Assembly (NCBI GenBank): GCA_963813135.1 | Contig: CAWEXY010000011.1 | Span: 32,001 to 96,000 of the forward strand | Length of the DNA: 64,000 bases | Direction: 5' to 3' | Source of the DNA: an uncultured Verrucomicrobiae bacterium | Lineage (GTDB): Bacteria; Chlamydiota; Chlamydiia; Chlamydiales; Rhabdochlamydiaceae | Part shown: piece after piece, positions 29,456 to 29,840 of the stretch | Numbering within the stretch: the stretch's first letter is position 1 | Layout: the number at the start of each line of letters is the position of its first letter | The notes under the pieces: generated by a model | Told to the model about the DNA's origin: nothing | Seen by the model: only the letters and a program-made list of their open reading frames with translations | The model's database searches: none | Made by a program: the position numbers and the translations under genes

Positions 29456-29840
29456 TCAGGCTCGTTCCGAGCCTGAGAAAATAAAGTAAGTTTTAAGTTG
29501 CCAGAGACAGTCGGGCCCACAGCACTTTGTGCCCGCCGGCTGCTCGCTCGCGCTGCTAAAGCATCGTCGTCTCGCAGACAAAACTGTGAGAATAAATTTG
29601 TTTCTGCGAGCCGACGGTGCCCACGAAGTGGGGACACAGCCGGCGGATTCAAGACACAAAGCGCCATCGGTCCGAACGAGTCGGCGGCAGTACTCCGTAC
29701 GCCGCGACGTGGGAGGATCCGATGGGGCACAGTGGATTGAATCTCAAAGGGGCAATGGGGGACGTCAGTCCCCGATATGTCTATGGCACGATAAAATTTA
29801 ATTTATATAATTTATTTATTTGGGCTCGCCAGAGTCCAAA
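29456..29840. repeat. Structured palindromic intergenic element, copy A (candidate ncRNA or MITE-like element)
   Basis: Nested inverted repeats with terminal mini-hairpins; homologous to 46340-46867. Confidence 0.8.

Follow-up and report, generated by a model that had tools for sequence, protein, structure and literature searches.

Among described bacterial repeats, the MITEs ERIC, RUP, Correia and RPE come close to the palindromic DNA family analysed here. As portrayed in the sections of PMC2229807 and PMC10969869 consulted, they are, like our family, non-coding, multi-copy, intergenic and strongly folding, and they share with it target duplications where ends are recognisable and a movement in trans, which for our family is our own interpretation. 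Compared with the same sections, the new family is three to five times longer, has two complex homologous arms, and places one core within the ends of two unrelated transposase families as well as within lineage-private ends. Those sections mention no strand-specific bias in neighbouring genes. REPINs, as the parts of PMC3116915 and PMC3733652 used here describe them, are also inverted, extragenic doublets; their spacer varies, they show compensatory changes, and their tandem repeats take in the flanks. Their arms, however, measure 20-40 nt in these descriptions, compared with ~240 nt in our family, which unlike REPINs also leaves 9-10 bp direct duplications in two lineages and has no Y1/HUH transposase (RAYT) in any of five carrier genomes (G000, G001, G010, G013 and G177). 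The initial annotation of this locus had likened it to REPINs; the likeness holds for the inverted extragenic doublet that forms a hairpin, and fails for the RAYT.

The same annotation named the Rickettsia palindromic elements. RPE-1 (TIGR01045) resembles our family in being palindromic, in occurring in intracellular bacteria and in the first few letters of its termini, but our elements are almost always intergenic and not in frame inside genes. The TIGR01045 protein model gave no hit on the element, and its best hit in five genomes is a chance match, as it is located in an MsrA-like gene. RPE1-like DNA (sub-cut-off TIGR01045 hits, not Rickettsia conorii itself) yielded no profile match (best E 6.9) and did not exceed shuffles in seven of seven loci. 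The comparison is thus apt for the kind of element and unsupported for its sequence. The shelled copies of G177 and G013 have the terminal repeats of the ISAs1 and IS4 families, respectively, of the same chlamydial family, together with duplications of matching length (10 bp and 9 bp). The palindrome family differs from both in encoding no transposase, and the two copies studied in most detail, A and B, are without these ends. No named family had been recognised at first, in agreement with Rfam, which returned nothing at gathering score and only sub-threshold hairpin matches. In the literature searched, which covered few subscription papers, we found no description of the palindrome family or of such a flank bias. 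The family is real and apparently undescribed so far.

Copies A and B lie in the window, i.e. the whole stretch of 64,000 nucleotides that was analysed. With a probability of roughly 0.65, copy A belongs, in partly deleted form, to a gene-less, two-armed palindromic DNA family that is MITE-like, is moved in trans by transposases of insertion sequences, and likely acquired its ends repeatedly. The features of both copies and their surroundings are:

29413..29446, + strand: C-rich 3' tail of tsp, unaligned to the empty-site relative (pairwise alignment with G001)
29456..29840, no strand: copy A, whole element, a two-armed palindrome with a deleted left arm (BLAST, folding, alignment of relatives)
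29456..29476, no strand: left outer hairpin of the genus-specific end of copy A (sequence; pattern scan of 129 family genomes)
29477..29506, no strand: left linker of copy A, AT-rich, pairing with the right linker (sequence, fold)
29507..29577, + strand: left arm remnant of copy A, with degenerate core end, first small hairpin and inner modules (nhmmer)
29578..29603, no strand: central AT-rich spacer of copy A, 26 nt (sequence)
29604..29784, - strand: right arm of copy A, complete, ending in the core end motif of the palindrome family (nhmmer, alignment)
29785..29840, no strand: right AT-rich linker and right outer hairpin (29819-29840) of copy A (sequence, fold)
29857..29885, + strand: promoter-like site of the host gene gltX, outside copy A (also at the empty site in G001)
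46340..46867, no strand: copy B, complete doublet (sequence, BLAST, folding)
46340-46362 and 46846-46867: outer hairpins of copy B
46392-46815: core of copy B, with its spacer at 46588-46628

Copy A is placed between tsp (NF051464, a chlamydial model, above cut-off) and gltX, with 10 nt from the tsp stop to its start and 53 nt from its end to gltX. The tsp match identifies the host as a chlamydia-type bacterium, in line with the labels of the matching records described below. Copy B, between dnaQ-like and pgk-like genes, starts 2 nt past a stop and leaves 58 nt between its end and pgk. The initial annotation had both copies starting near a stop codon and ending about 55 nt before a housekeeping gene, which these distances match, and all the stems it named are present in both. 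The unit it missed is the doublet of two homologous inverted arms, complete in copy B and partial in copy A. The right arm of copy A matches model positions 1-259 (nhmmer, E 4e-26 in a search of its own genome). In the left arm, only model positions 2-33 and 150-251 match, and the long middle stem (~115 model positions) is absent. The ~55 nt ahead of gltX are the gene's own promoter-like site. Four DNA sequencing runs gave short low-depth pieces only, and no joint spanning copy A or B.

A full copy of the family consists of two homologous arms of ~240 nt each, arranged head to head with an AT-rich spacer between them. Each arm comprises, in order, ACATGTCGGG, a small hairpin, a long variable stem, and inner modules. 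The core ranges from 86 to 2255 nt, with a median of ~495 nt (60 doublets, all fetched loci) and many deletions, and the spacer in relatives is either 17-189 nt long or contains genes. By BLAST and profile search, the genome of the window (G000) holds seven loci, of which four are two-armed (C3, C7, A and B) and three have one arm or part of it (C10, C15 and C23). This bears out the dispersed family proposed from the two copies in the window. The copy-richest genome, G013, has 35 end hits; the family is non-coding and multi-copy, as MITEs are. Of 401 genomes from the class, 35 carry the end motif, as do 25 of 90 genomes from other members of the bacterial family (near 0 matches for a reversed-pattern control), the true genome counts being lower because some end-motif loci, five of 30 returned, lack an arm-profile match and are chance hits. 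Outside the bacterial family, true copies exist in G127, G375 and G099. In the genome-wide scan, at least 38 of the 120 pattern loci listed match the arm profile; 80 of the loci listed are titled, and all 18 profile-matching ones among these are labelled as chlamydial or Verrucomicrobia MAGs, Rhabdochlamydiaceae and Chlamydiae among them. Neither plasmids, with chance matches of 28-33 nt only, nor viral contigs, where 0 of 37 pattern hits fit the arm profile, yielded a true copy.

Genes without a dedicated transposase are enclosed between the arms at three loci: Bro-N and DUF6602 at L055, a short-chain dehydrogenase at L056, and DUF2442 at L057. Cargo-bearing and autonomous forms were observed only among loci fetched by other routes than a long-pair pattern search. 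No mobility gene recurs beside ~170 ends, as judged for 24 inner proteins by Pfam and for the remainder by all-against-all BLAST and by eye. Genes for DUF559, GIY-YIG or Rpn nucleases were absent from the 24 inner or enclosed proteins (Pfam); motif searches for them covered G000. Three paralogous genes of 231-249 aa, without Pfam match, lie between two arms at L136 (G005:C3 904-4020). At L128, L451 and L472 of G177, transposase genes were observed inside or abutting elements, which may be insertion hotspots. One of them, at L128, was confirmed as IS701. It was rejected as the mover and represents a later insertion, because it has its own ends and several other copies.

The insertion sites support mobility. 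The tsp-gltX gap measures 447 bp in G000 and 24 bp in G001, a sister species of the same genus, and an arm at the tsp locus was found in none of 29 relatives, in 24 of which gltX is adjacent. In the alignment, the final codons of tsp from G001 and the promoter-like site of gltX both fall downstream of copy A, which therefore inserted into what had been the 3' end of tsp without damage to the gltX promoter. Three G001 copies have aligned G000 sites without the core, and at the empty sites in this comparison the outer hairpin and linker are absent together with the core. The family thus has both filled and empty orthologous sites, as MITEs do. The suspicion, voiced from the sequence at the start, that copy A is a mobile palindromic element is supported by these empty sites, by the dispersed copies, and by the transposon ends with duplications in relatives described below. 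Presence at a locus varies even between sister species, and positions are mostly unconserved between species. Some sites recur across genera, near V-ATPase B, an NTT-like gene, dnaN and pgk (labels partly from reading translations), with an arm upstream of pgk in G013 too. This fits hotspots or old vertical inheritance. The genes around 56 doublets are tandem in 30 cases, convergent in 16 and divergent in 10; the G000 background is 422, 101 and 102, respectively. At G000:C10:58638-60250, one lone outer hairpin is followed by a 1.6-kb unrelated insert, and G001 has the element at the same site. Unrelated palindromic elements occupy the same downstream gaps of tsp or dnaQ at L177 (G033, tsp-gltX gap), L178 and L184, and the termini of the one at L177 resemble RPE1-like elements.

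The same core is combined with outer ends that depend on the lineage, namely ISAs1-type ends, IS4-type ends, a genus-specific hairpin, or a private inverted copy of the flank. In G177, the core sits within 65-nt ends starting CAGGG (ISAs1-type). Five of its eight core-bearing end pairs are accompanied by a 10-bp duplication with 9 or 10 identical positions, and the other three are not; a sixth case was observed separately. The G177-type terminal repeat is present at both ends of an ISAs1 transposase in G002 (NF033564, E 3.5e-82) and at the left end of one in G275. G177's own 13-copy ISAs1 also has a 10-bp duplication, but its terminal repeat differs from that of the core-bearing copies. In G013, one sub-lineage of copies has CTCTGTRCTGGACA-like repeats as its ends (IS4-type). 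Here, an exact 9-bp duplication was found in two of the five pairs with both ends readable (L058 and L297, one by eye) and not in the other three. The congener locus L424 has a single copy of the target, compared with the duplicated target in G013. Intact IS4 elements of 1186-1188 bp (NF033591) in G025 and G004 carry the G013-type terminal repeat, with 9-bp duplications in three of three cases. As in MITEs, terminal repeats of an autonomous IS and a matching duplication length are therefore combined in G177 (ISAs1) and in G013 (IS4), the signatures being taken from elements measured in this analysis.

Copy A shows no IS-type terminal repeat with target duplication, and copy B has a score of 10, inside the control range. 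Most copies lack a readable shell, because only 6/69 doublets reach the stricter end-plus-duplication score of 13. The end in G000 and G001 is the outer hairpin, and its exact pattern occurs in two of 129 family genomes, every match beside an element. The four bases outside the core are A, T, A and G in 120, 125, 136 and 123 of 155 ends, respectively, and ATAG is absent outside the G177 copies. NTAG is found 5' of several outer hairpins and ATAG before the core; a fixed GTAG was not seen. Short core-less elements share the ISAs1 and IS4 end types, among them one 65-bp IS4-type element in G000. Homology of the arms to the interior of core-less IS4 MITEs was considered and rejected (the single profile hit was weak, E 0.0009, and did not exceed shuffles).

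Several further combinations of ends and interiors were observed. At L541, L546, L547, L555, L556, L558 and L569, one IS4 terminal repeat surrounds different palindromic interiors of 65-171 bp, and G219 has 29 exact hits. Core exchange may be general in this family. Additional lineage-specific outer ends occur at L046 (G027) and at L045 and L145 (G343), and at L046 the core's own terminal 8-mer is repeated outside a 40-nt inverted extension. L505 of G177 is nested, with an ISAs1-type end outside an older extension and a divergent core. G035 has 72 IS630-type and 17 ISAs1-type matches, yet no end motif of the palindrome family.

Traces of local copying are visible around the arms. In 14/60 doublets, one flank repeats the other in inverted orientation, compared with 1% of cross-pair controls. 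In nine (L145, L343, L045, L062, L056, L061, L290, L029 and L032), the match to the partner flank beats that to any other locus, and the flank match correlates with arm-to-arm identity (rho 0.47). End and flank are repeated in tandem at L128, L062 and L290, and repeated end hits also occur at L343 and L348. Flank copies and tandem repeats would be the expected trace of template switching at a fold-back. In such a mechanism, the fold-back would stall or redirect DNA synthesis, and one arm with its flank could then be copied onto the opposite side. This copying would keep the arms paired and create covariation without RNA selection. It would also turn neighbouring DNA, or a small MITE entered by the core, into new ends, so that the core may gain shells either by inserting into MITEs or through copies of an adjacent end. 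Shelled copies would be transposed in trans by the cognate IS transposase. Repeated local synthesis might also be behind the tandem re-duplications and the C excess discussed below.

The mover, where it can be named, is a predicted DDE transposase, and the 9-10 bp target duplications favour such enzymes. The 82% complete genome G000 yielded no match to Y1, reverse transcriptase, IS630, DDE_Tnp_1 or ISAs1, and no transposase could be tied to copies A and B, which are therefore likely stranded now. The same search found none of them in G013 (99% complete), contrary to the movement by an HUH/Y1 enzyme or reverse transcriptase that was initially considered. The lack of a DDE_Tnp_1 match in copy-rich G013 also weighs against our preferred reading, as do the scarcity of doublets with a readable shell, the different terminal repeat of G177's own ISAs1, the end pairs without an exact duplication and the sites that recur across genera. 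G127, from another family, has Y1 hits, none with an arm beside it. Alternatively, the core could be a mobile unit with its own enzyme, either as a TA-flanked MITE of the RPE/ERIC/RUP kind or as a small-nuclease-linked repeat, and the IS ends would then be targets that are sometimes carried along afterwards. The conservation of the core end across genera with differing outer ends, the ATAG preference outside the core, and the existence of short core-less elements with the same ISAs1 and IS4 ends agree with this. So do the similar few letters at the start of alphaproteobacterial RPE1-like DNA and the TA motif, typical of such MITEs according to PMC2229807. However, we consider it unlikely, as IS630 was not found in G000, G001, G010 and G013, no recurring mobility gene lies beside the ends, the G177 copies are without ATAG, and the empty sites of G000 and G001 lack the outer hairpin and linker as well as the core. 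A REPIN-like element moved as single-stranded DNA by RAYT/HUH, with the outer hairpins of A and B as REPs, is very improbable. The confinement of the outer hairpin to two of 129 genomes, compared with the widespread core, the lack of Y1 in the five carriers, and the duplications pointing to DDE enzymes outweigh the NTAG just 5' of several outer hairpins and the doublet layout, extragenic position, compensatory changes and flank-including tandem repeats, which are REPIN traits in the excerpts of PMC3116915 used.

The least probable of these readings is an RNA maintained by selection, either a structured non-coding one in dispersed copies or a cis-acting element, although the structure itself is strong. 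Copy A folds with -188 kcal/mol (z -10.4 on the + strand and -7.2 on the - strand) and copy B with z -17.0 and -15.5 on its two strands, and 0/100 shuffles fold as well in each case. Two-sided changes affect 18/25 stem pairs, above all 500 shuffles and the slid controls, for a structure drawn from the tested alignment. On the arm strand, A-C mismatches exceed G-T mismatches (143 vs 75; 37 well-paired columns, 105 non-independent arms), so that the complementary strand tolerates G-U. This excess leans to a strand-specific structure, and the recurrence of some sites across genera also agrees with an RNA. The covariation is real, but it is no proof of RNA selection, because copying between strands can yield it too. 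Accordingly, of the early proposal of selection on single-strand structure, the folding and covariation stand, and the selection is called into question by DNA-level arm copying. Its non-coding RNA version fares worse, given the mostly unconserved positions, the 10/56 doublets between divergent genes and the visible arm copying. The empty Rfam result at gathering score, the presence that differs between sister species, the broad range of lengths with many deletions, and the gltX promoter-like site downstream of copy A argue in the same direction.

Genes next to the MITE-like elements of our preferred reading show an unusual composition. Up to about 150 nt from the ends, the strand that runs inward is rich in C at silent sites, for either gene direction (169 ends). 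In genes ending at an element, four-fold C is 0.59-0.60 within 125 nt of the core, compared with 0.32-0.34 beyond 500 nt. C rises in 55/69 of these genes, and falls by 0.03 in G000 control genes. In genes pointing away, C on the inward, non-coding strand rises in 29/42 (control -0.01). The shift amounts to +0.147 in genes ending at the element and +0.098 in those pointing away. Compared with within-genome controls, it is +0.227 (19/22) vs +0.015 and +0.032 in G013, and +0.110 (33/45) vs -0.028 and -0.004 in the other genomes. The mean shift is positive in 16/21 genomes; p-values for the bias are overstated, as loci and genomes are related. In 10 filled/empty pairs of G000 and G001 (five each way), 145 changes to C and 70 from C fall within 100 nt, a difference that evens out by 200-300 nt. 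Within 200 nt, the split is 168:77 at sites filled in G001 and 87:69 at sites filled in G000. In the flanks of copy A the effect is weak (12:9 and 8:4), and G013 compared with its congeners gives 131:67 (several congeners per site). The genes touched by the bias include tsp, dnaQ and dnaE.

The C excess likely arose through local mutation. The second hairpin family of G000 shows no C rise (38 genes), nor do the near-identical, likely recent G177 copies (-0.035, n=12). The bias does not require an intact doublet, as partial (+0.141) and solo (+0.095) copies show it as well as full ones (+0.122). A Y-family polymerase was rejected as the cause, since the mean shift is 0.129 both with a match (90 ends) and without one (9 ends; several genomes incomplete). 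The mutational model is incomplete, because the skew reverses in the zone 10-40 nt beyond the core, and because rare variants within the arms are near symmetric, with no clear strand bias. Selection or target choice, e.g. of Rho loading sites or through avoided pairing with the arms, is a doubtful but not far-fetched alternative. C-rich, G-poor RNA favours Rho, and the effect is larger in genes ending at the element. In contrast, genes pointing away show the excess on their non-coding strand too, and it follows occupancy both ways between G000 and G001 and is missing beside the likely recent G177 copies. Joining local mutation with end acquisition, one could picture a giant gene-less palindrome that recruits transposases by copying or entering adjacent ends and also acts as a strand-specific local mutator, changing T, G and A into C along ~150 nt of the inward strand and thereby altering the terminal parts of housekeeping genes down to their amino acids. 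We put forward this combined picture tentatively, at clearly less than even odds.

Other repeats and genes were observed nearby. The second, shorter hairpin repeat family, of ~74 nt, occurs in the window at 2673-2746, 5852-5925 and 56449-56522, and 79 clusters in G000 fit a loose pattern that also takes in a related variant. At G000:C27:9328-9762, a gene for a PD-(D/E)XK nuclease (PF13366, E 1e-41) is flanked on both sides by this variant, which makes the nuclease a candidate mover of the 74-nt hairpin family. At window positions 31525-32575, a sulfite reductase flavoprotein-like gene is split into two overlapping ORFs that match consecutive parts of the model, due to a frameshift or an assembly error. 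The best stretch of a DNA polymerase I-like ORF at 56555-58807 covers model positions 1-565 of 889, and this gene is possibly split or frameshifted. A WD40-repeat protein, a eukaryote-like fold, is encoded at 17285-18829.

MITEs are usually bound by their ends to one transposase family. In the present family, a single long core occurs with ends of the ISAs1 and IS4 types and with private ones. Such an exchange of ends would offer a direct route to test how orphan palindromes, such as RPE and ERIC, persist after loss of their mover. Covariation in palindromic repeats of this kind need not signal an RNA gene. If mutational, the flank bias would represent a short-range mutation signature at long palindromes.
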